The translations under genes and the position numbers were made by a program. Source: Macrostomum lignano (Eukaryota). Taken from it: a stretch of 64,000 nucleotides of DNA. The notes under the pieces were generated by a model. It had not been told where the DNA came from, did no database searches, and saw only the letters and a program-made list of their open reading frames with translations. The first letter of the stretch is position 1; each line of letters starts with the position of its first letter. The stretch covers positions 496,001 through 560,000 of the forward strand of contig NIVC01000366.1 in the NCBI GenBank assembly GCA_002269645.1, given 5' to 3'. This document shows positions 45,753-63,905 of the stretch, one piece after another.

Positions 45753-46124
45753 CAGCGGTACTCGTAGCAGATCATTCACTGCTACCCAATTCTCCTTGCC
45801 TGTCCATGAGTGTGTTGGTATCTCATGCAGTGTGCTAAATTGAGACTACAATTCAGACACGGAACTGTAACGGTTTATCAACCAGCAAAGAACGGGTCTG
45901 TCGTATCGGAATGACAATAAAAAATCTGCTTGCAGTCCTGCAGTAGCACGGAAGCGGATATTTTGAAACTCAAAGCTGTAGATGTCTGAAAATTGTGACA
46001 GTTTAAATTGCAGTAGCTATTTTTAAGAAAACTAAGATAATTCTGTCTGCTTCCTATCAGTACTTGAATAATCAAATACAGCCACAGGGCAAAATGAACC
46101 ACAGCGTAATCTGGCAATAGTTAT

Positions 46125-46652
46125 GGCGTCCCCTTGGTGCTGGCGCCCTTTAGTTATGGCGCCCCTTGGTGCTGGCGCCCCTTGGTGCTGGCGCCCCTGG
46201 TGCTGGCGCCCCTGGTGCTGGCGCCCCTGGTGCTGGCGCCCCTGGTGCTGGCGCCCCTGGTGCTGGCGCCCCTGGTGCTGGCGCCCCTGGTGCTGGCGCC
46301 CCTGGTGCTGGCGCCCCTGGTGCTGGCGCCCCTGGTGCTGGCGCCCCTGGTGCTGGCGCCCCTGGTGCTGGCGCCCCTGGTGCTGGCGCCCCTGGTGCTG
46401 GCGCCCCTGGTGCTGGCGCCCCTGGTGCTGGCGCCCCTGGTGCTGGCGCCCCTGGTGCTGGCGCCCCTGGTGCTGGCGCCCCTGGTGCTGGCGCCCCTGG
46501 TGCTGGCTCCCCTGGTGCTGGCTCCCCTGGTGCTGGCGCCCCTTTGGTGCTGGCGCCCCTTTGGTGCTGGCGCCCCTTTGGTGCTGGCGCCCCTTGGTGC
46601 TGGCGCCCCTTGGTGCTGGCGCCCCTTTGGTGCTGGCCCTCCTTTGGTGCTG
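46125..46652 (-). repeat. Same 15-bp array in inverted orientation
   Basis: (CGCCCCTGGTGCTGG)n, about 35 units. Confidence 0.97.
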
Positions 46653-46834
46653 GCACCGAGTCGTACTGTCCACAGTCGGTACAGGATAACGATAACTCCC
46701 TCTCTCTCGCCCTTGTGACGCAGCTTCCTGCTGAAAATGTCTTGGTCTGCTCTTGGCATTTCCTGGAATCGGACTTCATCACCGATTATGATCAACTATA
46801 TGCTCAACAGCACTAAATTGATTGATTCTAATTT

Positions 46835-48962: not shown

Positions 48963-49826
48963 TGTAGAGTGTTCTACCTCCCGTTAAAAAAGGAAAAAAG
49001 AAGATAATCGTATAATACTACTATAAGTAAGTGAGTACACGCATGTGCGCCTAAGCTTTGAATGAATCACGCTACCAGAAAAAGATGTTACCAGAATAAT
49101 ACGCCATGAGCCATTTTCCCCTTTTAGCGCAACACGTGAATTGTCATGATACTATTTTGGATCAAAAACTTGTCTATAAATACAAGCGATCTGAAGCGGT
49201 ACCGGAGCCATTCTCCCCACGGAAGAGGAGCGCTCCGAAGAGGAAGCCTTAGGAGGACTTCCTGATCTACCAAGTCAATCGAGACTCGGTCGAGTTGTTG
49301 CGGTAAGCCTTCCTTATTTGCGCCCGTTGTGTTAGAGACGTCTCGCTCAAGTCTATTGAGACTTGAGTCTAATTGAGTCTGTTGAGACTCTTGAGTCTGT
49401 TTAGACTCCATTGGTTGCAGTCTCCAGAAGGACTGCCCCTGATAGATCTTAGAGGACTATCAGTGGTTTCCGGAGCTATACCTAGAGTGCATAGAGGCAC
49501 TGCTAGAAGAAGGAGGCTTAATTTAGACCGCAGTTTGGCGCAGGGTACCCATTGTTGCTACGAGGCCTCTGATTGGTCCTGACGGAAGATACCGGCCGGA
49601 AGAACTTATCGGAAGTACAAGAGGAACCAGGACCAGAGCAACTGAAGAATCAAGGCGCCTGATCTACGAGATCTACTGACAAGTTCCTAGCGAGAACTAC
49701 TCAAGAAATTCAAATCCGGATTAAAGGTAATTGAATACCTTCGTTTGACTTACTGGGTTGCCTAGCTGTTGAGCTAGAAGTGATTGTTCCTTGATTATCG
49801 AAAGTCGGGTAATAAGGAACACATCA
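48963..49826 (+). repeat. 5' LTR
   Basis: TGTAGAG...ACATCA. Only one substitution versus the 3' LTR was noticed by eye (49033 G vs 58782 A). Confidence 0.96.
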
Positions 49827-49828
49827 AT

Positions 49829-49846
49829 TGGTGATCTCGCCCTCTC
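49829..49846 (+). promoter_or_regulatory. Primer binding site (tRNA unassigned, tRNA-Trp-like)
   Basis: TGGTGATCTCG begins 2 nt after the LTR end. Confidence 0.6.
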
Positions 49847-50542
49847 GGCACTACTCAAACCTTGAGCAATAGCCTGGCCAAGCTATTGTAAAGTGACGAC
49901 AGAGCGACTTCATTAATTTTGCGCGCACGTGTTAGAGTTAACACTTTTTAAGTCCGTTACGTTTTGAAACTCGAGTAAAATTTGGTGTACAGGTTTGAGC
50001 ACCTGTCAAATTTGAGTACAGTTTGAGCACGCGTGTTAAAATTTTGTTTTGACGAGCTCGAGCAAGTGTGAGTTTAAAACAAAACCGAAATTAACTTCGT
50101 CGGTACACTGAAAACAAACCAAAAATAAAAAGAATCGTCGACGCAAAACAAACAAAAAATAACTGAAACATTTTGCCGGCACAAAAACTAAAACAAAACC
50201 GAAATTAATTGAAACTTCGTGGAGAGCAGAGTTAATTGACAAAAGAGAGAGAGTCAAAGAAGAGAAGAAAGACTTTGCAAAGCAAGAAGACAAGTCCACT
50301 TCAACTTGAAGATACACTTTGCGGGACGCCGCATAAGTGCGAAATCAGCAAGCGAACAGAACAAGTTCATTTGAGGACAACCAGTGGCAGCAAGCCACAC
50401 CGCATCCGAGGCCAGCGAATAACAAATCGACACCACAAGGCAATTCGTTACAGTCGAGGTTTATTCCGAGGCAAACACCACACTGGACGATCCGTTACAA
50501 ATCGATCCAGATCTTGAACTACCGTTCTACCCTATCAACAAC

Positions 50543-53500
50543 ATGGCGCGGCGCAATCCAACGGTACACAGAGACATCAAAGAAACGGTCGGTACTTTCT
50601 CGATGGAGAAAGATTTTAACACATTTGTCGACCATTTTGACCTGGTATGTAGGGAATACAACCTACAAAATCCAGAGAAGGCACAGCTGCTGCCACCTCT
50701 TCTCCAAGGTACTGCGCGAGAAATTTACGGCAAGCTGGATGCGGCAACACAGCAAAATTATCCAGCACTAATCATTCAACTGCGCGCGCATTTCAACCGT
50801 TGCGGCACAAACAGATCAGTGCTGCTGCACAAGTTGCATAACAGAAGGATGCAAGCAACAGAATCCTTCCTCGCCTTTGTGGACGATATCCGCCAGATAA
50901 TTAAGGCACTGCATCAGCCACCGCTGCAAGCTGCGGACCAACCACCACTGGGAGCGGCAGAATTGGCCGCCAGAGAAAGACAACGATTGATGGATCGTGA
51001 ACAAAACCTCATCCTGCACGTAATAAACAACGCACAGCCGTCACTTCGGGATAGACTTTTGCGTGAAAATATCGAAACCGAAGAAGACCTTTTGCGTTGC
51101 GGAATGCAATGGGAAGCCAGTGCCCCATTAATGACGACAGGCAACAATGAAGTGCAGAAACTGACGCAGCAACTAAACAAGTTAATGCAGCACCAGACAG
51201 CTGCTATCGCCGAACAAAAAAGACGAAATGAACAAGCCTCAGCCAGATGTTACTACTGCGGACAAGAAGGACATTATCAGATTAATTGTCCTCATTGGTC
51301 AACAAGATACGACAAGCCGCGACAGATATTCAACAATCAGAAGCCGCAGAAACCATGGCAGCACTATCAAAATCGCCAACAACAAGGAATGAGACGCTTC
51401 GGAAATGATAGACGCTTCGGAAATAATGACCGCTCCGGAAATGATGGCCGCTTCGGAAACGAAGGCCGCTTCAGAAGTAATGGCTACAGGCCACGCAACG
51501 TCAGATACACACAAAGACAGCCGACGCAAGCAATGCCACGATACGCGAATGCCATCACGTACACACCGGAAAATGAACAGCAAGAACAGCAAGTGTTCAC
51601 AATTGACGACTTGGAAATGGACTTCACAGTCCCGGAACTTGACATCAGCTTGATCGAAAAGAAGACGACGCACGAGGACAACACTGACAACACAGAAGAG
51701 ACGAATGAAACCGAAATGATCAAATTAAAAGAGACCACCGGAGACAGCAGAGAAAACAGGAAGAAAGTAAATCACAAGACAAGGGAGGAGGCGGAGAGCG
51801 ACATCGGCAACGAAGAAAAGATGAAAACCGGCGAAGAAAACAACTATGAATCGACAACAGTGGATGACGACAAAACGAGCATGAAAGACAAAGAAATGAA
51901 AGAAGAAGAAGAATGTAGAAGTTACGGCAACGACCACGACTGCGAGGTGCGTGATGACACGAACGACTACCAAGCCGAAAGAGGAATGCAGGAAGAACCG
52001 AGAGCGGAGAATCTAAGTTCCGACAGCGATCAAGGCTACGAAATACAATGGAAAGATGAAGAAATGGAAAAAGAACAGATGAAAGAAAAGCCGAGTTCCG
52101 ACAGCGACGAATGCTACGAGATCCGATACAAACGAAATGGTGAAGCCTATATTCAAACGGTCGACTACAAGACAGAGAAAAGATACCAAACGCAATGGAG
52201 TGAAACAACGGAAACATCGGAAGAAGCCGCAGACGAAGATAATGAAATAACCAAAAAGCAAAGCGAATCAGAAGCCTTCCGCCTGGATCAGCCAATGGAA
52301 CAACCGAAAGAATATGATGCGGACATGGAAGATAACGAATGGCGATCGCAGCCAATGCCAGCAAGGACAACGGCAAAATCCAAGAAGTGGAAAAACTGGC
52401 TATTCTGGATCATCGTGATACTACTGATAGCAGTAGTCGCCAAAGCAACGGCAACGGAAAAGCCAATGATTTGTCCAACGGATGCGCATATCCAACCGAT
52501 GATCTACAAGATACCAACCGACATCAAATGCAGTTACTTCAAGACAAACCAGACAAAACCAAAGAAGATTACACTCGATCTCTACAAGGCTAACATCAAG
52601 AAGCATCGACAACACGGGATAGTATGCTTCAGAGACAAGCACCTGGTGGAAAAAGTTTGGCGCGGACAATGGAACCGGATCCGATTTAAACAACATGAGC
52701 TACATGTGTCGCACGCGGAATGCCTACAATGGAATCAAACACTATTTTCAAAGGATGGTGAACTGGAACCAGATGAGAAGGTCGGCAACGCACAGCTGTT
52801 CAGAACAAAGAATTCAGCCAACGGTCGATATATTCACTTCTTCGGAAAATGGAAAGAATATATGGCACGCAACAGCTACTTGATCAGAAATATTCCATTC
52901 TACTACAATCCGTACGAGAAAATGGAATCGTTACAGCTGCAACTAAGCGAATGTCGATACAGTGAAGGATGGTGTCCAACGCCGATTCTACGGAAGGAAG
53001 AACTACACAGTCTACCACTGAGTCCAACATATCATCAAGACTATCGATGGCAGATTGAGCACAGAGCACAATCACACTATGAGGAACCGTACAAATCACG
53101 ACAATACTTCTTCGCGTGGGAAGTTGAGCCGGAAATTGACTGCAAGCTTCAAAAGTATCACACAGTTGAAGGAGGACTACTGTCAAATACGTTTTTGGCA
53201 AAGTCAGGAGACTTGGCACTGACGTTTCAAAAGAAACCAGTCGAGCAAAAACTGAAATGCAAGGATACAGACAAGACACTATTCATCTCGGAACAAGAGA
53301 TACCAGTCTACGTAAAGGATGAAGACAAACAAACCTTCTTGGCAATCATCAATGGAACGTATCAGCAACAAGAAAAACAGAATAGAAGACGACGTGACAT
53401 CGAACGTCCCAAACTGGTGTCAAACCGGCTGTTGTCAGCAAAGATAACGGCTTTGGATCACAATCTACACAACCAGTTAAACCACTTGCATCGAACACTG

Positions 53501-55420
53501 GTCCAGCTAACTTGCAAAATGCACGCAATCAACTTAAATTATGCCAGACAAAACTACTATGTCAACCCTACGATGACTTTTCGTAAAATCACCGGAATGA
53601 CGAACGTTTTGGCAGTTCCAATATACGAGCATCTGTTGATATACAAGTGCACGCCGATACAGCACTTTAACATCTTGCCGTCAAACACGTCAACAACCTG
53701 CTACGATAAGCCAAGGATTGAAGCGTTCTACGAAGGAAAACGAATTCAGGGATTCTTGGACACGGTACACAACATCATCGTTGGCACCGCAATACCGAGA
53801 CCTTGCACCACGGCAGTAAACTACTATCAACTGGACAATGCACTACACGTCATCAAAACAACTGGAACGACAGCAAACGTCACAGAACCGGAAGTAATCG
53901 TCGACGAAAACTACGACATGGAGGATTTGAAAATCCGATTCAACAGAACGAAGTATACGCCATTCGCCGATATCCAACTTGACGAGATAACACCAGGATG
54001 GACGATCAACGACTTCTTGCAAGCGTTCATCACCCAACGCAAGATGATTCACCAGCTGTTCACAAGAAAGGACAAAGGAACCGGGACAGGAAGATTTCCC
54101 GTCCTTGTTTCAATGGACAGCGCCATCAAATCATTTTGGACAAATAGCTTCTGGGAGCTGCTCAATGGAAGAGGCAGTCTCTATCAAGGATTCATCTTCT
54201 ACGGTGCTTGCATTGTGTGGATTGTCACGGCAATCTTCATCATTTCATCGATCGTACGGTGCTTCAGTCAAACTTGTCCAAGAGCTAAGAAGACAGTGAA
54301 TGCCATAATGCAAAGAACGACAACGGAAAGCGACAACAGTTTAGAACTAACAGAAACTGCACATTGTGAGGTTCAAGGGCAACCGACACTAGCAACGCGG
54401 CTATATCCATCGATTCCGACAACACCAACGGCACCAAGGATACAACCACCCAACTATCAAGCAGAACAGCACGAGCCAAAATGGCCGGAAAACTACGTCT
54501 GTACGCTACACGCCGAGATTGGCAAAGCAATGGCTCAGGTCATTGTCAACAACTTGCCATGTCGAGCACTACTGGATTCAGGCAGCTCGATCACAGTCAT
54601 CTCGCAACAATTATGCAACAAGCTACGACTCGCGGTACGACCAGCAGCAATCGCAGTTGCAGGAGCAGGAGGACATTCACTCAACATCCTAGGAAAAGCA
54701 GATATCGACTTGAAAATTGCTAATAAACAGCTGACGGTCCCGACGTACATCATCGACAGACTACCAAACCAAGACGTCATCGTTGGAATCGACACGTTCA
54801 AGCAGCTTCAACTACCATTGACCTTCGACTTCAACAAGCAAACGTTTAGGATCGACACGGTGGAGCAACCGCTGATCAACCAGATTCGAGTACTACCGAA
54901 AGTAACTCTGCAGCAAGATGTCATTATCCAGCCTGAAAGCGCATGCTGGGTCAGAGCGAAAACGACCAGCGCGGCAGATGAAGCAATGATATTTGATCCA
55001 CACAGGAGAGTCACGGCAAAACATCAAATCATGATGCCTACGGCACTAGTGCTGGTTGCAAAGGATAAGCAACTGCCAGTACAAATCTTCAACCCGAACA
55101 CAGAAACGGTTCATCTACGACAAGGAATGTGCATCGGTCATCTCAACACCCAAGCATCGGTTATGCTGATTGAACAAGCGACTCCACGACTAACAGAGGA
55201 AGAATTTCAAAAGAAGATCAATTTGGATGACAGCCCGATTACGGAACAGCAAAAGAGGAAAGTTCGACAGCTGTTGTGGAAGTACAACGAAGCCTTCTGC
55301 CATCATGATTACGACATCGGACGCCAAGGACATCAAACAGGAAATCAAACTTCTGCCGCACACGGAACCAATTCAGTGCAAGCCGTACCCGATCGCCAAG
55401 CATCTGCAACAACACTTTGA
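50543..55420 (+). CDS. Gag - acidic linker - Env-like class III glycoprotein - aspartic protease polyprotein (1625 aa)
   Basis: Gypsy capsid; CCHC knuckle CYYCGQEGHYQINC (51248); hydrophobic signal/TM (52397-52453); Cys-rich ectodomain with six NxS/T sequons and RRRR (53384); TM anchor (54191-54256); LLDSGS protease (54575). Confidence 0.9.
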   Translation: MARRNPTVHRDIKETVGTFSMEKDFNTFVDHFDLVCREYNLQNPEKAQLLPPLLQGTAREIYGKLDAATQQNYPALIIQLRAHFNRCGTNRSVLLHKLHNRRMQATESFLAFVDDIRQIIKALHQPPLQAADQPPLGAAELAARERQRLMDREQNLILHVINNAQPSLRDRLLRENIETEEDLLRCGMQWEASAPLMTTGNNEVQKLTQQLNKLMQHQTAAIAEQKRRNEQASARCYYCGQEGHYQINCPHWSTRYDKPRQIFNNQKPQKPWQHYQNRQQQGMRRFGNDRRFGNNDRSGNDGRFGNEGRFRSNGYRPRNVRYTQRQPTQAMPRYANAITYTPENEQQEQQVFTIDDLEMDFTVPELDISLIEKKTTHEDNTDNTEETNETEMIKLKETTGDSRENRKKVNHKTREEAESDIGNEEKMKTGEENNYESTTVDDDKTSMKDKEMKEEEECRSYGNDHDCEVRDDTNDYQAERGMQEEPRAENLSSDSDQGYEIQWKDEEMEKEQMKEKPSSDSDECYEIRYKRNGEAYIQTVDYKTEKRYQTQWSETTETSEEAADEDNEITKKQSESEAFRLDQPMEQPKEYDADMEDNEWRSQPMPARTTAKSKKWKNWLFWIIVILLIAVVAKATATEKPMICPTDAHIQPMIYKIPTDIKCSYFKTNQTKPKKITLDLYKANIKKHRQHGIVCFRDKHLVEKVWRGQWNRIRFKQHELHVSHAECLQWNQTLFSKDGELEPDEKVGNAQLFRTKNSANGRYIHFFGKWKEYMARNSYLIRNIPFYYNPYEKMESLQLQLSECRYSEGWCPTPILRKEELHSLPLSPTYHQDYRWQIEHRAQSHYEEPYKSRQYFFAWEVEPEIDCKLQKYHTVEGGLLSNTFLAKSGDLALTFQKKPVEQKLKCKDTDKTLFISEQEIPVYVKDEDKQTFLAIINGTYQQQEKQNRRRRDIERPKLVSNRLLSAKITALDHNLHNQLNHLHRTLVQLTCKMHAINLNYARQNYYVNPTMTFRKITGMTNVLAVPIYEHLLIYKCTPIQHFNILPSNTSTTCYDKPRIEAFYEGKRIQGFLDTVHNIIVGTAIPRPCTTAVNYYQLDNALHVIKTTGTTANVTEPEVIVDENYDMEDLKIRFNRTKYTPFADIQLDEITPGWTINDFLQAFITQRKMIHQLFTRKDKGTGTGRFPVLVSMDSAIKSFWTNSFWELLNGRGSLYQGFIFYGACIVWIVTAIFIISSIVRCFSQTCPRAKKTVNAIMQRTTTESDNSLELTETAHCEVQGQPTLATRLYPSIPTTPTAPRIQPPNYQAEQHEPKWPENYVCTLHAEIGKAMAQVIVNNLPCRALLDSGSSITVISQQLCNKLRLAVRPAAIAVAGAGGHSLNILGKADIDLKIANKQLTVPTYIIDRLPNQDVIVGIDTFKQLQLPLTFDFNKQTFRIDTVEQPLINQIRVLPKVTLQQDVIIQPESACWVRAKTTSAADEAMIFDPHRRVTAKHQIMMPTALVLVAKDKQLPVQIFNPNTETVHLRQGMCIGHLNTQASVMLIEQATPRLTEEEFQKKINLDDSPITEQQKRKVRQLLWKYNEAFCHHDYDIGRQGHQTGNQTSAAHGTNSVQAVPDRQASATTL

Positions 55421-56411
55421 CGAAATCATCGATAAAATGCTAAAGCACGGCATCATCAGCAAAGCTATTTCGGCTTACTCCTCACCGTGCCTACTGGTAC
55501 AGAAGAAGGAGACAAACGAAAGACGACTCGTATGCGACTTCAGACTGTTGAACAAGTACATACCGACGGATCAGCAAAGCCTACCGAAGATCTCCGAACT
55601 ACTAGCAAAGCTCAACACGGCAAAATTGTTCACGGTGTTCGACCTACGTCATGGATTTTGGCAAATTGAAATCGAGAAAGAGTCACGACAGTACACGGCT
55701 TTCAAAACCTACAATGGACAAGTATACGAGTACAATCGATCGCCGATGGGACTTAGCAACAGCCCAGCAACGATGAGTCGACTAACAGCATACATGCTAG
55801 CAGGATGCACGAACCTGCTGCACTATGTCGACGACATTTTAGCCTACGGAGAGGATTTCGAGCGACTCTACGAAGCTACGGAGAAGGCCCTAGCGCTCAT
55901 TCAACGCCAAGGTCTGAAGCTACAACCAACTAAATGCAAATTCTTCCGAGACAACGTGCGTTACCTGGGACATCAGGTGACAGCCAAAGGAATCTCACCG
56001 GACCCAGACAACGTGGAAAAGGTGAAGAAGTTTCCTACGCCAACCAGTATAACGAAGGTCCAATCATTCCTTGGACTTGCGCAATACTTCAGGAAGTTCT
56101 TACCTAACTTCGCAAAGACAGCAAAGCCACTGTACGACCTGCTCAAGTTCGACAAATGGAAGCAAGACAACTGGACACAGAGACAACAGGAAAGTTTCGA
56201 CGAAATCAAACGACAGCTGACATCAGACGCACTGCTACAGCATCCGGACTTCGACAAGCCCTTCATCATCGAGACAGACGCCTCAGGAACGGGACTCGGA
56301 GCAGTCCTACTACAGGAAACCGAGGACAAGAAGGAACGACCTATTGCTACGTCAGTCGAGCACTCAAACCAAATGAAACAAAGTGGTCAGCTACGGAACG
56401 AGAGCTACTAG
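55227..56411 (+). CDS. Reverse transcriptase plus start of RNase H (frameshifted continuation from about 55322)
   Basis: DFRLLNK, FDLRHGFWQI, PMGLSNSP, YVDD (55824), YLGH and ETDASGTGLGAVL. Confidence 0.95.
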   Translation: MTARLRNSKRGKFDSCCGSTTKPSAIMITTSDAKDIKQEIKLLPHTEPIQCKPYPIAKHLQQHFDEIIDKMLKHGIISKAISAYSSPCLLVQKKETNERRLVCDFRLLNKYIPTDQQSLPKISELLAKLNTAKLFTVFDLRHGFWQIEIEKESRQYTAFKTYNGQVYEYNRSPMGLSNSPATMSRLTAYMLAGCTNLLHYVDDILAYGEDFERLYEATEKALALIQRQGLKLQPTKCKFFRDNVRYLGHQVTAKGISPDPDNVEKVKKFPTPTSITKVQSFLGLAQYFRKFLPNFAKTAKPLYDLLKFDKWKQDNWTQRQQESFDEIKRQLTSDALLQHPDFDKPFIIETDASGTGLGAVLLQETEDKKERPIATSVEHSNQMKQSGQLRNESY

Positions 56412-58036
56412 GAGTCTTGTTCGCCCTGCGACAGTTTCATTACTACATCTATGGTTCTCCAATACAGACGATAGTACGCACGGATCATGCACCATTGACC
56501 TACGTCGTAACTACAAAAGGACAGACCAACAACCGACTCATCAGAATGACACTCAAGATCCAGGATTACAACTACAAACTCGTCTACAAACCAGGAATTA
56601 CCAACAAAGCCGCGGACGCCCTGTCAAGAGCCTATGAAGTCAACGCCATTCATCCAATCCCTAACATCAAGGAGTTGGTGGATGAAACCGAGCGCGACAA
56701 CTTCTACCAAGCGGTTAAAGACGACGACAAGAACATCAAACTCAGTCCCATGGAACGAAAATTCCTACGCAAGCAACGACAACACCTAACAATCAATAAG
56801 TCACGGCTCTACTGGATGAGCGACAATAAACCCAAGATCTACATACCATATTCGTTTCGGCAAGCAATTCTCAACGAGCTACACGACAACCCACTCGCTG
56901 GACACCTGTCGGCAGCAAAGACCATCGCGAGAGTGGAACAATACTACTTTTGGCCAACTATGTACGGCGACATCAAGCAGTATTGCAACAACTGCCATTC
57001 ATGTGCTGCATCAAAGACAGGACGACGACAGAAACCGCAGCTACAGTCCATTCCGAAGTCGACTACAATGGACTGTCTAAGCATCGACATCACCGGACCG
57101 CTACCACCGAGCTGTCTCCAGGGCATCGCCTACACCTACATTCTAACCGCCTTGGATATCTTCTCGAAGTTTGCTATCGCCATACCGATACCGGACATCA
57201 CAGCTCAGACAGTGGCAATGAGTTTCTTCAACGAAATCATTTGCAAGTACGGCACGCCGAAGAACCTCACATCGGACAACGGATCGCAGTTTACATCGCA
57301 ACTGTTTCAGCAAGTCGTAAGGATTCTCAACATTACGCAGATCTACACATCGACCTACAATCCGAAGGCAAACATGGTTGAACGGTTTCACCGCAACCTG
57401 CACGAGATGATTACACATTTCGCGCACCAACAGCCGGAAGACTGGATCATCTACCTGCAATCTGTAACAATGGCCTACAACAGCGCTATTCATCGATCAA
57501 CGGACAATACGCCATTCTTCCTAATGTTTGGACGAGACTTCCAACCGCCGAATCTGCTCGCACAGCAATTGCTACCATCGCAGTACGTGGAAGTACCGAC
57601 TTCCATTCAGAAATTCGTCACGCAACTACACCTCGCATGGAAGATCGCCAAGCACAACATTGACAACCAGGTGGCTCTGACCACCGGCAACGACGCGAGA
57701 TCGACAACCCTGACGGCCGGCGACATCGTCTACCTACACTACCCGCCACAGCAGACGCATAAACATGCACAGAAGTACAAAGGACCCTATCGAGTGGTCC
57801 AACTAACGTCACCAACAACGGCACGCCTGGCTAATGTACAAGATCCACATCAGCACCAGTTCTACGTACACATTCATCGACTAAAGAAGATCAACACTGA
57901 CACAGCGACGTTTCTACCGACATTAGACAACGCTGATCGCACGCGTTCAACGAACCGCCACATCGCGACGAAGCACGAGGAGACTCAAACGACAGATGTG
58001 AGCCAGCCACATGGCTACAACCTACGACCACGCTAG
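56156..58036 (+). CDS. RNase H C-terminal part plus integrase (true frame from about 56348)
   Basis: SRAL..W...ERELL, TDH, ADALSR, HHCC Zn finger, DDE triad (IDITG, SDNGSQF, VERFHR) and GPY motif. Confidence 0.95.
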   Translation: MEARQLDTETTGKFRRNQTTADIRRTATASGLRQALHHRDRRLRNGTRSSPTTGNRGQEGTTYCYVSRALKPNETKWSATERELLGVLFALRQFHYYIYGSPIQTIVRTDHAPLTYVVTTKGQTNNRLIRMTLKIQDYNYKLVYKPGITNKAADALSRAYEVNAIHPIPNIKELVDETERDNFYQAVKDDDKNIKLSPMERKFLRKQRQHLTINKSRLYWMSDNKPKIYIPYSFRQAILNELHDNPLAGHLSAAKTIARVEQYYFWPTMYGDIKQYCNNCHSCAASKTGRRQKPQLQSIPKSTTMDCLSIDITGPLPPSCLQGIAYTYILTALDIFSKFAIAIPIPDITAQTVAMSFFNEIICKYGTPKNLTSDNGSQFTSQLFQQVVRILNITQIYTSTYNPKANMVERFHRNLHEMITHFAHQQPEDWIIYLQSVTMAYNSAIHRSTDNTPFFLMFGRDFQPPNLLAQQLLPSQYVEVPTSIQKFVTQLHLAWKIAKHNIDNQVALTTGNDARSTTLTAGDIVYLHYPPQQTHKHAQKYKGPYRVVQLTSPTTARLANVQDPHQHQFYVHIHRLKKINTDTATFLPTLDNADRTRSTNRHIATKHEETQTTDVSQPHGYNLRPR

Positions 58037-58156: not shown

Positions 58157-58531
58157 ATGGGCAACGCACTGTCAAAACAGGCGCCCCAGCCTCAGCAGCT
58201 ATATGACTGCCCGATATGTTTAACTGATGACTTGGCTGTCAAGCCACCGACTATTTGCATCAACGAACATAAAGTTTGCGGACAATGTTTAAGCGATTCA
58301 CATTATATTCAGCCATGGCAGAATTGTCCCCTCTGTAGAGATAGTTTGCGACAATGTGCCTATTGTTATTCTTGGCGCACGTTTCAATATTGTAACCACC
58401 AACATTTTATTTGCATGCACTGTTTGAAGCAAACCGCTAGTAGGGGCGTTATAGGATGCCCCTTATGTAATAGTATGCCGCGAGACTGCACGTTTCGAAA
58501 GTGGTGTCGGATCAAACCTGATGCCACTTGA
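58157..58531 (+). CDS. Accessory ORF: tandem RING-like Zn fingers with N-terminal myristoylation motif (124 aa)
   Basis: ATTATGG Kozak context; MGNALS; CPIC..CINEHKVCGQC..CPLCR; CAYC..CNHQHFICMHC..CPLC. Confidence 0.8.
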   Translation: MGNALSKQAPQPQQLYDCPICLTDDLAVKPPTICINEHKVCGQCLSDSHYIQPWQNCPLCRDSLRQCAYCYSWRTFQYCNHQHFICMHCLKQTASRGVIGCPLCNSMPRDCTFRKWCRIKPDAT

Positions 58532-58711: not shown

Positions 58712-59575
58712 TGTAGAGTGTTCTACCTCCCGTTAAAAAAGGAAAAAAGAAGATAATCGTATAATACTACTATAAGTAAGTAAGTACACGCATGTGCGCC
58801 TAAGCTTTGAATGAATCACGCTACCAGAAAAAGATGTTACCAGAATAATACGCCATGAGCCATTTTCCCCTTTTAGCGCAACACGTGAATTGTCATGATA
58901 CTATTTTGGATCAAAAACTTGTCTATAAATACAAGCGATCTGAAGCGGTACCGGAGCCATTCTCCCCACGGAAGAGGAGCGCTCCGAAGAGGAAGCCTTA
59001 GGAGGACTTCCTGATCTACCAAGTCAATCGAGACTCGGTCGAGTTGTTGCGGTAAGCCTTCCTTATTTGCGCCCGTTGTGTTAGAGACGTCTCGCTCAAG
59101 TCTATTGAGACTTGAGTCTAATTGAGTCTGTTGAGACTCTTGAGTCTGTTTAGACTCCATTGGTTGCAGTCTCCAGAAGGACTGCCCCTGATAGATCTTA
59201 GAGGACTATCAGTGGTTTCCGGAGCTATACCTAGAGTGCATAGAGGCACTGCTAGAAGAAGGAGGCTTAATTTAGACCGCAGTTTGGCGCAGGGTACCCA
59301 TTGTTGCTACGAGGCCTCTGATTGGTCCTGACGGAAGATACCGGCCGGAAGAACTTATCGGAAGTACAAGAGGAACCAGGACCAGAGCAACTGAAGAATC
59401 AAGGCGCCTGATCTACGAGATCTACTGACAAGTTCCTAGCGAGAACTACTCAAGAAATTCAAATCCGGATTAAAGGTAATTGAATACCTTCGTTTGACTT
59501 ACTGGGTTGCCTAGCTGTTGAGCTAGAAGTGATTGTTCCTTGATTATCGAAAGTCGGGTAATAAGGAACACATCA
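58712..59575 (+). repeat. 3' LTR
   Basis: Near-identical copy of 48963-49826. Confidence 0.96.
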
Positions 59576-59902
59576 CCTTGGGGTAATAAAGTTTGCCAAC
59601 CCCTGCTCTAGGTTCTTTATCTGGCCCTTGGGGTAATAAAGTTTGCCAACCCCTGCTCTAGGTTCTTTATCTGGCCCTTTGGGTAATAAAGTTTGCCAAC
59701 CCCTGCTCTAGGTTCTTTATCTGGCCCTTGGGTAATAAAGTTTGCCAACCCCTGCTCTAGGTTCTTTATCTGGCCCTTGGGGTAATAAAGTTTGCCAACC
59801 CCTGCTCTAGGTTCTTTATCTGGCCCTTGGGTAATAAAGTTTGCCAACCCCTGCTCTAGGTTCTTTATCTGGCCCTTGGGTGAAAAAGTTTGCCGACCCC
59901 TG
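59576..59902. repeat. ~50-bp tandem array of MITE 3' ends
   Basis: GGGTAATAAAGTTTGCCAACCCCTGCTCTAGGTTCTTTATCTGGCCCTTG, about 6 units. Confidence 0.93.
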
Positions 59903-60039
59903 ACTTATATGTATTGTATGTACACAGCTTGTGTGTGCTCAGGACCATGTCGCTGGTTGTGGTACCATGTCGCCAAAGGCGTTGCACCAGGGGTGCCCAA
60001 AAGTCCGTTTAGCTTTGTCCGTTAATCCACGAAATGGAT

Positions 60040-60275: not shown

Positions 60276-60699
60276 TACAGAGTACAAAAGTAAAATAATG
60301 GACACTTCTTATAGGCGTCAAGCTGGCTTCCATTCCAGCGGCGCAGTTGGCAGAAGTCCCTGGCGCAACCTACAAAAAACCATGAAAGAGCCCCCTGACC
60401 CAATACTTCTCTGTTTTCGCGTAAAAAAACAGGACGACAAAAGCGGAAAGCTCAGGTCAGACTTCCCATCTAAGCATAGTTGTACTGTTGGAGATTTATG
60501 ACCAACTGTAAAAAGTGAACTCTGCTCACCGGTTCGGATAGACCAGCTTGTTTTCAACCCCCGCCCTGCCCCATTATTTTCTGATTGCGAATGCAGTCAA
60601 CCGCAAATTAAAAAATACAGTTACCTGAGTTTGACAACACAGTTATTGTATCTCAGCTACAGGGCCAAACAAACAAACTGGCTTACCTCGGGTCAGATC

Positions 60700-61990
60700 A
60701 GCATACTCGAATTCCCCTCAGATCCCAAATACTAGAATTTCCCGGAGATCCCAAGTACCTGAATTCCCCTGAGATCCCAAATACCGAAATTCCCCTCAGA
60801 TCCCAAATACCGGAATTCCCCTCAGATCCCAAATACCAGAATTCCCCTCAGATCCCAAATACCAGAATTCCCCTCAGATCCCAAATACCGAAATTCCCCT
60901 CAGATCCCAAATATCAGAATTCCCCTCAGATCCCAAATACCAGAATTCCCCTCAGATCCCAAATACCAGAATTCCCCTCAGATCCCAAATACCAGAATTC
61001 CCCTCAGATCCCAGATACCAGAATTCCCCTCAGATCCCAGATACCAGAATTCCCCTCAGATCCCAGATACCAGAATTCCCCTCAGATCCCAGATACCAGA
61101 ATTCACCTCAGATCCAAAATAACAGAATTCCCCTCAGATCCCAGATACTCGAATTCCCCTGAGATCCCAAGTACCTGAATTCCCCTCAGATCCCAAATAC
61201 CAGAATTCCCTTCAGATCCCAAATACCAGAATTCCCGTCAGATCCCAACTACCCGAATTCCCCTGAGATCCCAAATACCAAAATTGCCCTCAGATCCAAG
61301 ATCCCAGAATTCCCCTCAGATCCCAAATACCAAAATGCCCCTCAGATCCCAGATACCAGAATTCCCCTCAGATCCCAAATACCAAAATGCCCCTCAGATC
61401 CCAGATACCAGAATTCCCCTCAGATCCCAAATACCAGAATTCCCCTCAGATCCCAAATACTCGAATTCCCCTTGAGATCCCAACTACCGAATTCCCCTCA
61501 GATCCCAAATACTCAACTTCCCCTGAGATCCCAACTACCCGAATTCCCCTCAGATTCCAAATACCAGAATTCCTCTGAGATCCCAAATACCAGAATTCCC
61601 CTTAGATCTGAAATACCAGAATTACCCTCAGATCCCAAATACTCGAATTCCCCTCAGATCCCAAATACCAGAATTCCCCTCAGATCCCAAATACTCGAAT
61701 TCCCCTTGAGATCCCAACTACCGAATTCCCCTCAGATCCCAAATACTCAACTTCCCCTGAGATCCCAACTACCCGAATTCCCCTCAGATTCCAAATACCA
61801 GAATTCCTCTGAGATCCCAAATACCAGAATTCCCCTTAGATCTGAAATACCAGAATTACCCTCAGATCTGAAATACCAGAATTCCCCTCAGATCTCAAAT
61901 ACCAAAATTCGATCTCCAATACCAAAATTCCCCTCAGATCTCAAATACCAAAATTCCCCTCAGATCCCACATACCAGAATTCGCCCGAGA
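60700..61990. repeat. 26-bp minisatellite (CCAGAATTCCCCTCAGATCCCAAATA)
   Basis: About 48 units with a longer internal duplication near 61470-61870. Confidence 0.95.
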
Positions 61991-62634
61991 TCCTACAAAA
62001 AGTGCATGTGGCGCCAATATAAGTGTCTGCGGTGCTAATGAGTACTAACAACACCAATTCCAAAATTAGTATTTTAGATTTTGGATTCTCGATTTCGTTC
62101 CCCCATCACCATGCATCCATAAAATGAATGTTGCTCGCCTGTGTACGGCTAAATGAGGCACAAGGAAATATTCCGTTTTCCGGTTCACACAGGAAAGTTT
62201 CCCTAGTAGGAGTCCTTGTCCTTGCACTTTGCTCGTATAATGTTCTTGTAATTGAGTTGGACTGGCGCCAGGCTTCAACCCCAGGCCTCTGCTACCAGAC
62301 ACATTGCCCTAAAAAAACTTGGTAGAATGGTAGAAGGGTGTAAGGTTTCCCGTTCCCATCACCTTTTCCAACAAACAAAGACTCATGTTTCAGTACGGAA
62401 AGATACATATGATATAAGCCTACGGGTTTTCCGGTTTTCTTATCTATAATTTCGTTTCATCTGCACTTCTGCACTCTAAAATACGAGTACCATGGAAAAC
62501 TGTGTACTAGGGCTTGTCTTGAAATTCAGTCGATTTTTATGCTGCAAGTTGCAACTGATTAACTAAGCAGACTGTTGCGAAGGGGCATTGTGGACACGCG
62601 GTAAGAGGGACACTTAAGGCAACAAGAAAACCAA

Positions 62635-62815: not shown

Positions 62816-63364
62816 CAAACGGTGATAAAAGGGCAGTTCAACACAGAAGAGCATTCATTAATTGAATACAAAACCGGACTCCAAACTACATTGCGGAATA
62901 TGAATTCAGCCGTTTTTAGTTCAAAGTTCAATCTAGGTTCAATTGAAACAGCTTAGACTCTAGACTCTAGAGGCTAGAGCACCCGAGTACCTGAATATAG
63001 CAACCCCAGAGGCTAAATTGCTTTGTTCTGCACAAAGAACAGAATGGCAGGCCAGGCCAGCGTGCAAGGCGTTTAGTGTCCATGGTTCAGGCCGTGGGGT
63101 TCTATTATGCACGGACTGAGTGATCAAAGAGGCGCCGCCGCAGCCACCAACAGCCTTTGTTTCTTATACGGTATAAGAAAATTTCTCGAAGGGGATTTAA
63201 TTGTAATGGTTTAATTTCCCGGAAAAAGGCGTTATATCGTACATTTGTCTATACAGAACAGGTTGTGAGATGCCATCCTCAACCCTCATGGCACCCCTCT
63301 GCTAACTACTCGTAATAATGATTATGCCTTTGTATAAGCAACTCCTGAGCAGTCGATTCCATAA

Positions 63365-63905
63365 AAGGCGATTTTCTAAGATGCAGTTCCTTTTGAGGCG
63401 ATCTTCTAAGATGCAGGTCCTAAAGAGGCGATCTTCTAAGATGCAGGTCCTAAAGAGGCGATTTTCTAAGATGCAGTTCCTTATGAGGCGATCTTCTAAG
63501 ATGCAGGTACTAAAGAGGCGATCTTCTAAGATGCAGGTCCTAAAGAGGCGATCTTCTAAGATGCAGGTCCTAAAGAGGCGATCTTCGTAGATGCAGTTCC
63601 TTAAGAGGCGATCTTCTTAGATGCAGTTCCTTAAGAGGCGATCTTCTTAGATGCAGTTCCTGCAGAGGCGATTTTCTAAGATTCAGTTCCTTAATAGGCG
63701 ATCTTCTAAGATGCAGTTCCTTAAGAGGCGATCTTCTTAGATGCAGTTCCTTAAGAGGCGATCTTCTAAGATGCAGTTCCTAAAGAGGCGATCTTCTAAG
63801 ATGCAGTTCCTTAAGAGGCGATCTTCTAAGATGCAGTTCCTTAAGAGGCGATCTTCTAAGATGCAGGTACTAAAGAGGCGATCTTCTAAGATGCAGTTCA
63901 TAAAA
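63365..63905. repeat. 30-bp minisatellite (GAGGCGATCTTCTAAGATGCAGTTCCTTAA)
   Basis: About 18 units. Confidence 0.95.

Follow-up and report, generated by a model that had tools for sequence, protein, structure and literature searches.

The tail of the Env protein of a Ty3/gypsy errantivirus in the flatworm Macrostomum lignano carries three motifs of the late-domain type, and comparison of sequences within its family, across the host genome and among outside relatives indicates that these motifs are a real feature under selection. It is moderately probable, on this evidence, that enveloped particles are released by ESCRT machinery which is recruited by Env and not by Gag. Both the motifs and the class of element are known; the arrangement, late motifs on an Env tail, was not found described. 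Positions refer to the window, the whole 64,000 nt stretch of DNA that was analysed (contig NIVC01000366.1, positions 496,001 to 560,000).

Organisation of the element

The element is 10.6 kb long, as framed by its LTRs (TG...CA), its primer-binding site and a 4-bp target-site duplication on both sides, which together with the order protease-RT-RNase H-integrase identify it as Ty3/gypsy. Its features are as follows.

48963..49826, + strand: 5′ LTR, 864 nt, TG...CA
49829..49840, + strand: primer-binding site, the same 12-mer as given for Mlig_errantivirus_2 in the supplement of PMC13524379
50543..51289, + strand: Gag, about 250 aa from the first Met (aa 41), with one CCHC knuckle at its end (zf-CCHC, aa 276–291)
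51290..52396, + strand: acidic low-complexity Gag-Env linker, about 370 aa, predicted from its sequence to be cytosolic
52397..52453, + strand: internal signal sequence (first hydrophobic segment), with its hydropathy maximum at aa 659 and small residues after it
52460..54187, + strand: Env ectodomain, a predicted class III (herpes gB-type) fusogen from structure-model matches
53384–53395, + strand: furin-type RRRR within the Env ectodomain
54188..54256, + strand: Env membrane anchor, hydropathy to 2.4 at aa 1256–1275, at the same place in 8/8 lineages
54257..54481, + strand: Env tail, predicted cytosolic, 75 aa, the stretch from the anchor to the conserved Trp-Pro
54401..54415, + strand: LYPSI, ALIX-type YPx[L/I] motif
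54425..54436, + strand: PTAP, TSG101-type motif
54446..54457, + strand: PPNY, WW-domain-type PPxY motif
54482..54487, + strand: conserved Trp-Pro, a possible cleavage site separating the Env tail from the protease, 31–38 residues upstream of the catalytic Asp in 8/8 lineages
54485..54820, + strand: aspartic protease (Pfam PF13650, PF13975, PF00077; Asp_protease_2 E 1e-9)
55194..58036, + strand: RT, RNase H and integrase in Ty3/gypsy order (Pfam RVT_1, RT_RNaseH, Integrase_H2C2, rve)
58157..58531, + strand: small RING-like ORF between integrase and 3′ LTR (zf-RING_2 E 0.002)
58712..59575, + strand: 3′ LTR, aligned with the 5′ LTR over 866 nt with 1 mismatch

The pol frame of this copy has two breaks, near 55,300 and 56,350, and is considered broken twice because RT, RNase H and integrase sit on two further frames. 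Four of 150 protease matches in the genome lie within one open frame of 2,538 codons, so the natural form of the family is a single Gag-Env-Pol frame. Most copies of the family are near-identical and young. No public run containing the element is annotated as RNA. It is covered in 28–30 of 30 bins by four public runs presumed to be RNA; no joint within gag-env-pol was seen in these runs, the contigs of which cannot exclude splicing, and the coverage is not evidence of expression.

The RING-like ORF (124 aa) has two RING-like Cys/His arrays and an N-terminus of the form MGxxxS, which we take to be a myristoylation-like consensus. It was present in both of the window-family copies checked, and two related families have RING ORFs at the corresponding position. 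In the sister family there are one or two, without the MGxxxS start, and none was found in seven loci of the other clades. Its atlas neighbours are viral RING proteins (0.90–0.92), with arenavirus Z at 0.87 as a lead only. A role as a ubiquitin ligase bound to the membrane, or as a helper resembling matrix, would be in keeping with ESCRT use. Tandem-repeat arrays around the element (46030–46820, 59576–59930, 60600–62040 and 63300–63620) yield spurious long ORFs.

Chary and Hayashi described GAG-ENV-POL gB-type errantiviruses in nematodes, bryozoans and flatworms (PMC13524379), and their list has a single M. lignano element, Mlig_errantivirus_2, among nine flatworm rows. The window element shares with it the 864-nt LTR, the primer 12-mer, the Env type and the host, and differs slightly in LTR spacing (9749, against 9727 as listed), so that the window family matches the printed element when compared by LTR length, primer 12-mer, Env type and host rather than by ORF sequence. 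The published gB-type errantiviruses also show the same gene order and a gB-type Env between two hydrophobic segments. Given these agreements in gene order, Env type, LTR length and primer 12-mer with the published account (PMC13524379), the class of element is already known. A UniRef protein labelled Macrostomum lignano is 99% identical to that of the window element.

The Env protein

The domain between the two hydrophobic segments is 575 aa long and contains Cys residues. A model built from eight sequences was of medium confidence (pLDDT 61, pTM 0.41), and in a Foldseek search against the PDB all 33 listed matches were herpes gB, the best being KSHV gB (E 1.8e-19). Against viral models, the best match was a nyavirus glycoprotein (E 2.3e-23), with chuvirus and gB glycoproteins also found. 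TM-scores of the structural matches are only about 0.2–0.3, the sequence profile reaches gB at E 0.02 only, and the Pfam match PF24664 (E 8e-6) falls under its cut-off, no Env name lying above one. On the strength of the modelled fold, the protein is a class III fusogen of the herpes gB type, placed between signal and TM segments. A furin-type site is found in Env of 8/8 lineages. In one clade, a Thr-rich, mucin-like insert of about 200–270 aa occupies the furin loop (L068:3028-5409, L070:2491-5040, L072:4925-7408).

Late-domain-type motifs in the Env tail

Translation of 54401–54457 on the forward strand gives 19 residues (aa 1327–1345 of the 1665-codon frame 50423–55420) with all three motifs, bearing out the original prediction that they lie together between the Env anchor and the protease. 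The cluster starts about 48 residues past the second hydrophobic segment (aa 1256–1278) and ends 40 residues upstream of the protease's catalytic Asp (aa 1385). Apart from PTAP and PPNY, the frame contains no match to P[ST]AP or PPxY. The tail motifs agree with the late-domain consensus (P[ST]AP, YPXnL or YPX[L/I], PPXY), and LYPSI, at first labelled imperfect, needs no such label because it fits YPXL/I. Vincent et al. 2003, to go by the title, reportedly identified YPXL/I as the PalA/ALIX motif. When the 75-residue tail was shuffled 20,000 times, P[ST]AP and YPx[LI] occurred together in 0.025% of cases, and all three motifs in none.

Conservation within the family was examined in 11 distinct versions of the 27 residues before the protease, drawn from 82 locus rows including duplicates. 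Both [LM]YPx[LI] and PPxY are present in 11/11 variants, and P[ST]AP in 10/11. The variable residue of PPxY is T in six variants, N in two, G in two and I in one. Codons were counted in 27 of 36 distinct family sequences (nine with identity of 85% or less, or partial, were dropped), and variation touched 1 of the 10 key residues and 28 of the remaining 64 in the tail (Fisher p 0.04, a guide only, as the family sequences are related). Silent changes were found at four key motif codons.

Motifs in other lineages of the M. lignano genome

Forty long loci, picked by hand from the protease and RT match lists to span divergence, gave eight env-bearing lineages in three clades of an RT tree confined to elements of the M. 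lignano genome; lineage D, without usable RT, was placed by protease and Env similarity. This compares with the one M. lignano element of the published list (PMC13524379). At least five more gag-env-pol lineages, forming two further clades, are absent from that list as printed (L068, L070, L072, L074, L093).

Env segments of the other lineages are 24–64% identical to that of the window element, the sister family being closest at 62–64%. Their proteases can be aligned with that of the window element (z 15–94), whereas its distal tail does not clearly resemble any of the other seven (z −1.3 to 2.3); a few other pairs of tails reach z 3–11, in part via the motifs themselves. On this background, P[ST]AP occurs in 7/8 lineage tails (0.22 expected) and hydrophobic-YPx[LI] in 6/8 (0.04 expected), while PPxY is found in 1/8 (0.32 expected). 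Counted at the level of the three clades, the chance P values are about 3e-4, 2e-6 and 0.28, respectively. The hydrophobic-YPx[LI] pattern was set after the lineage tails had been viewed, so the outside set described below is its real test. Two or three motif types per tail are present in 5/8 lineages, and their order varies: YP-PTAP-PPxY in the window element, but with PTAP ahead of YP in the sister family and in two more. In one copy of lineage B, PNAP replaces PTAP. The triple cluster of the original prediction does not stand as stated: P[ST]AP and YPx[LI] recur across lineages, while the full set of three, PPxY included, is specific to the window family.

Trp-Pro follows the tail in 8/8 lineages, and retroviral proteases cleave at aromatic-Pro, making it a plausible cut site of the element's protease. 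Since it lies downstream of the cluster in every lineage, release of the motifs on a small peptide, as once suggested, is less likely than their retention on Env. No conserved cut site upstream of the cluster was seen in the eight lineages.

Motifs in Env tails of outside relatives

Word-index protein searches returned only 2, 2 and 1 relatives, and the outside set was taken from a profile search instead, using the best 150 of 442 matches at E ≤ 0.001. Among 151 proteins, a tail could be taken from 84; nine stopped within the ectodomain, and 58 lacked a usable anchor. Removal of 11 tails (three from families of this genome, two mis-called, six under 40 aa) and six redundant ones left 67. Some of these relatives may be other flatworm elements.

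In the 67 tails from the best 150 of the 442 matches, P[ST]AP occurred in 10 against 0.59 expected by shuffling, YPx[LI] in 9 against 1.91, hydrophobic-YPx[LI] in 6 against 0.45 and PPxY in 10 against 1.37. LPxY was not enriched (1 in 67, against 1.08). At least one motif was present in 23/67 tails and two or more types in 6/67. The remaining 44/67, including named nematode elements, had none, and the motifs are therefore not required across the class; a few of the tails are probably mis-called, which dilutes the signal. Among the named entries of 30 proteins that were looked up, motif-bearing tails belonged to Caenorhabditis angaria, Acrobeloides nanus, Haemonchus contortus and one rhabdo-like virus, and motif-free tails to Meloidogyne, Ditylenchus and C. 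tropicalis clusters. In three cases (P0028, P0034 and P0047), the Gag-Env frame stops just past the motif-bearing tail, a p6-like position; these may be truncated predictions.

Conservation of the motifs relative to the flanking linker, set beforehand as the test of the original prediction, was thus found within the family, across divergent lineages and in outside relatives. PPxY stands out from a variable background within the family and in the outside set, and not across the lineages of this genome. A cluster that arose by chance in a Pro/Thr-rich linker, or that is inherited but no longer functional, would suit motifs this short, the near-identity and youth of most family copies, the modest within-family test and the fact that the eight lineages are related. 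It would not account for the retention of motifs, in changed order, in tails that cannot otherwise be aligned, nor for enrichment in an outside set that played no part in the choice of motifs. Such a reading is largely refuted and highly improbable.

Selection may also have acted through other partners of proline motifs (SH3 or WW proteins, or adaptor complexes that read Tyr signals) or through a role after entry, the ESCRT consensus being met by overlap. YPx[LI] also fits the Tyr-x-x-hydrophobic endocytic signal, and the Env tails are Pro-rich. An entry role has been proposed for late-type motifs (PMC7995964). The enrichment is, however, limited to the exact orders of residues read by ESCRT adaptors: among 17 permuted controls of the same letters, including other Tyr-x-x-hydrophobic forms, none was significant in the 67 tails (all P ≥ 0.16), making this explanation rather improbable.

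Gag, linker and env-less elements

Gag of the window element has no N-terminal Gly and no P[ST]AP or PPxY; its one YPxL-like match is no commoner than chance. No late-type motif was found on scanning its Gag-Env linker (51290–52396). Enrichment was seen neither in Gag nor in the linker of the 42 outside proteins that have a knuckle ahead of Env, and P[ST]AP was found in 0/42 of both. One permuted control reached P 0.016 in the outside Gag regions, and as 1 of 22 Gag and linker tests was taken as noise. The placing of the motifs on the Env tail instead of Gag, also part of the original prediction, is thus upheld, the tail being enriched and Gag not. It is not absolute, because one or two late-type motifs lie in the Gag-Env linker of 3/6 lineages of this genome (none in the window family), with PPxY in 2/6 (P 0.03).

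The linker itself varies strongly among lineages in sequence and in length (110–370 aa). In L063, L065, L068 and L070 it holds a second late-type set (PPxY, PSAP, YPxI), on that side of the Env signal which faces the cytosol. Scans of Gag and pre-protease stretches of seven env-less gypsy loci found no motif. These loci, few and distant as they are, give no support to the view that the cluster began as a C-terminal (p6-like) piece of an ancestral Gag and was split off by insertion of env.

Host ESCRT partners

Three strong UEV matches in the host genome can be aligned with human TSG101 (E 9e-45). Exons for the ALIX V domain are also present, as are many HECT domains, counted irrespective of WW domains. 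The host TSG101 UEV and ALIX V domains align well to the human structures. TSG101 Y68, N69, M95 and S143 and ALIX F676, which we take to be peptide-pocket residues, are kept in the host proteins, and the residue at the position of TSG101 Y63, presumably also of the pocket, differs. The host side shows that candidate partners exist. Complex prediction for the UEV domain of host TSG101 and 40 residues of the tail scored 0.16 against a mark of 0.34, in a run without controls, and weighs neither for nor against binding. Downstream of the host TSG101 UEV exon, a tandem repeat (L082:2091-2606) has YPSI repeated in one frame; it is probably intronic and coincidental.

A model for release

The preferred reading, ESCRT-driven release through Env, would begin with one polyprotein that crosses the membrane twice. 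Hydropathy predicts a lumenal ectodomain, with tail, Gag and Pol in the cytosol. Gag and the acidic linker would be left in the cytosol while the gB-type ectodomain enters the lumen via the internal signal, probably followed by peptidase cleavage, and the anchor would bring the chain back to the cytosol with tail, protease, RT and integrase. Cleavage would be by signal peptidase, furin and the element's own protease, and a cut at Trp-Pro would keep the cluster of motifs with the transmembrane subunit of Env. Gag probably reaches the membrane via Env, because it is only about 250 aa long, has no Gly start and no evident matrix or myristoylation signal. The Env tail would then recruit TSG101 (PTAP), ALIX (YPxI) and, in the window family, also a NEDD4-type ligase (PPxY), and enveloped particles would be pinched off by ESCRT, either at the plasma membrane or into endosomes.

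In favour of release, three motif types with three different adaptors converge on one known pathway, and late motifs of these types act in virus budding independently of position and in combination (PMC7995964). The class III type of Env, its furin-type site and the good match of host TSG101 and ALIX to the human structures speak for it as well. Against it stand the motif-free majority of outside tails, the lack of PPxY in 7/8 genome tails, the linker motifs of 3/6 lineages, and the single frame, which implies equal amounts of Gag, Env and Pol, unusual for a virion. The shuffle test, moreover, takes shuffles and not host tails as its baseline, and is blind to a general richness of motifs in the cytosolic tails of membrane proteins.

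Sorting of membrane proteins into multivesicular bodies and exosomes makes use of these motifs and adaptors as well (PMC7995964), so the motifs do not independently prove an extracellular virion stage, which the original prediction took them to support. In the main rival reading, they would bind ESCRT adaptors as sorting signals, for turnover or recycling of Env via multivesicular bodies or for exosome loading, limiting the fusogen at the surface, with particle scission by another route or absent. ALIX does sort membrane cargo via YPX3L motifs and builds exosomes with syntenin (PMC7995964). The motifs lie on the tail of a membrane protein and not on Gag, an RNA-virus glycoprotein of the outside set (P0145) also has PPxY in its tail, and 44/67 outside tails do without. 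What makes sorting an unlikely explanation is that P[ST]AP, the strongest signal, is typical of ESCRT recruiters rather than passive cargo, that Gag has no alternative late motif, and that two or three motif types per tail (6/67 outside, 5/8 genome lineages) is the pattern of viral late domains.

Returning to release, a broader proposal is offered tentatively, as somewhat less than an even prospect: that, in a twice-spanning polyprotein, the captured class III fusogen supplies the membrane targeting of Gag as well as the ESCRT late domains, an egress design not known to have been described for retroelements, and that the motifs, repeatedly gained, lost and reordered, mark many flatworm and nematode errantiviruses as releasing enveloped particles infectious from cell to cell. 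No particle or infection has been shown so far for gB-type errantiviruses, according to the discussion in PMC13524379.

Comparison with known late domains

No report of Env-tail late motifs on retrotransposons was found in the literature searched, mostly non-subscription; such motifs might be mentioned in Sacco et al. 2022, which reportedly treats nematode gag-env-pol elements, or in the files deposited with the eLife study. The main text of PMC13524379 contains no mention of late domain, ESCRT, PTAP, budding or cytoplasmic. That survey of the class states as open the question of how, if at all, env-bearing Ty3/gypsy elements exit cells outside Drosophila (PMC13524379). Selected ESCRT-adaptor motifs on an Env tail name specific host factors, and egress may be testable by host knock-down in a flatworm with young copies of the element, covered by public runs presumed to be RNA. 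The presence of Env-tail motifs in many related elements suggests how these little-studied elements leave the cell. If the release reading is true, budding by late domains on a fusogen's tail, instead of on Gag or matrix, would be out of the ordinary and relevant to the way in which retrotransposons become viruses.

HIV-1 p6 lies just before the protease, as does the tail cluster of the window element. In foamy virus, Gag has no membrane signal of its own and relies on the cytosolic N-terminal side of Env for budding; unlike the window element, this virus has PSAP on Gag, separate Gag and Env proteins and a class I Env. The combination of motif types in a short disordered stretch is shared with HIV-1 p6 (PTAP and YPXnL), EIAV p9 and Ebola VP40 (PTAPPEY) (PMC7995964). 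Late domains of retroviruses and RNA viruses are carried on Gag or matrix, and late motifs have been placed on matrix, Gag or nucleoprotein (PMC10587442), whereas those of the window element follow the Env anchor, with no enrichment in Gag. A membrane glycoprotein with late motifs that link particles to ESCRT, as proposed here, is found in NS3 of Bluetongue virus (PMC4452911; PMC6949946), although NS3 differs from the window Env in being non-structural, not a fusogen and from an unrelated virus.
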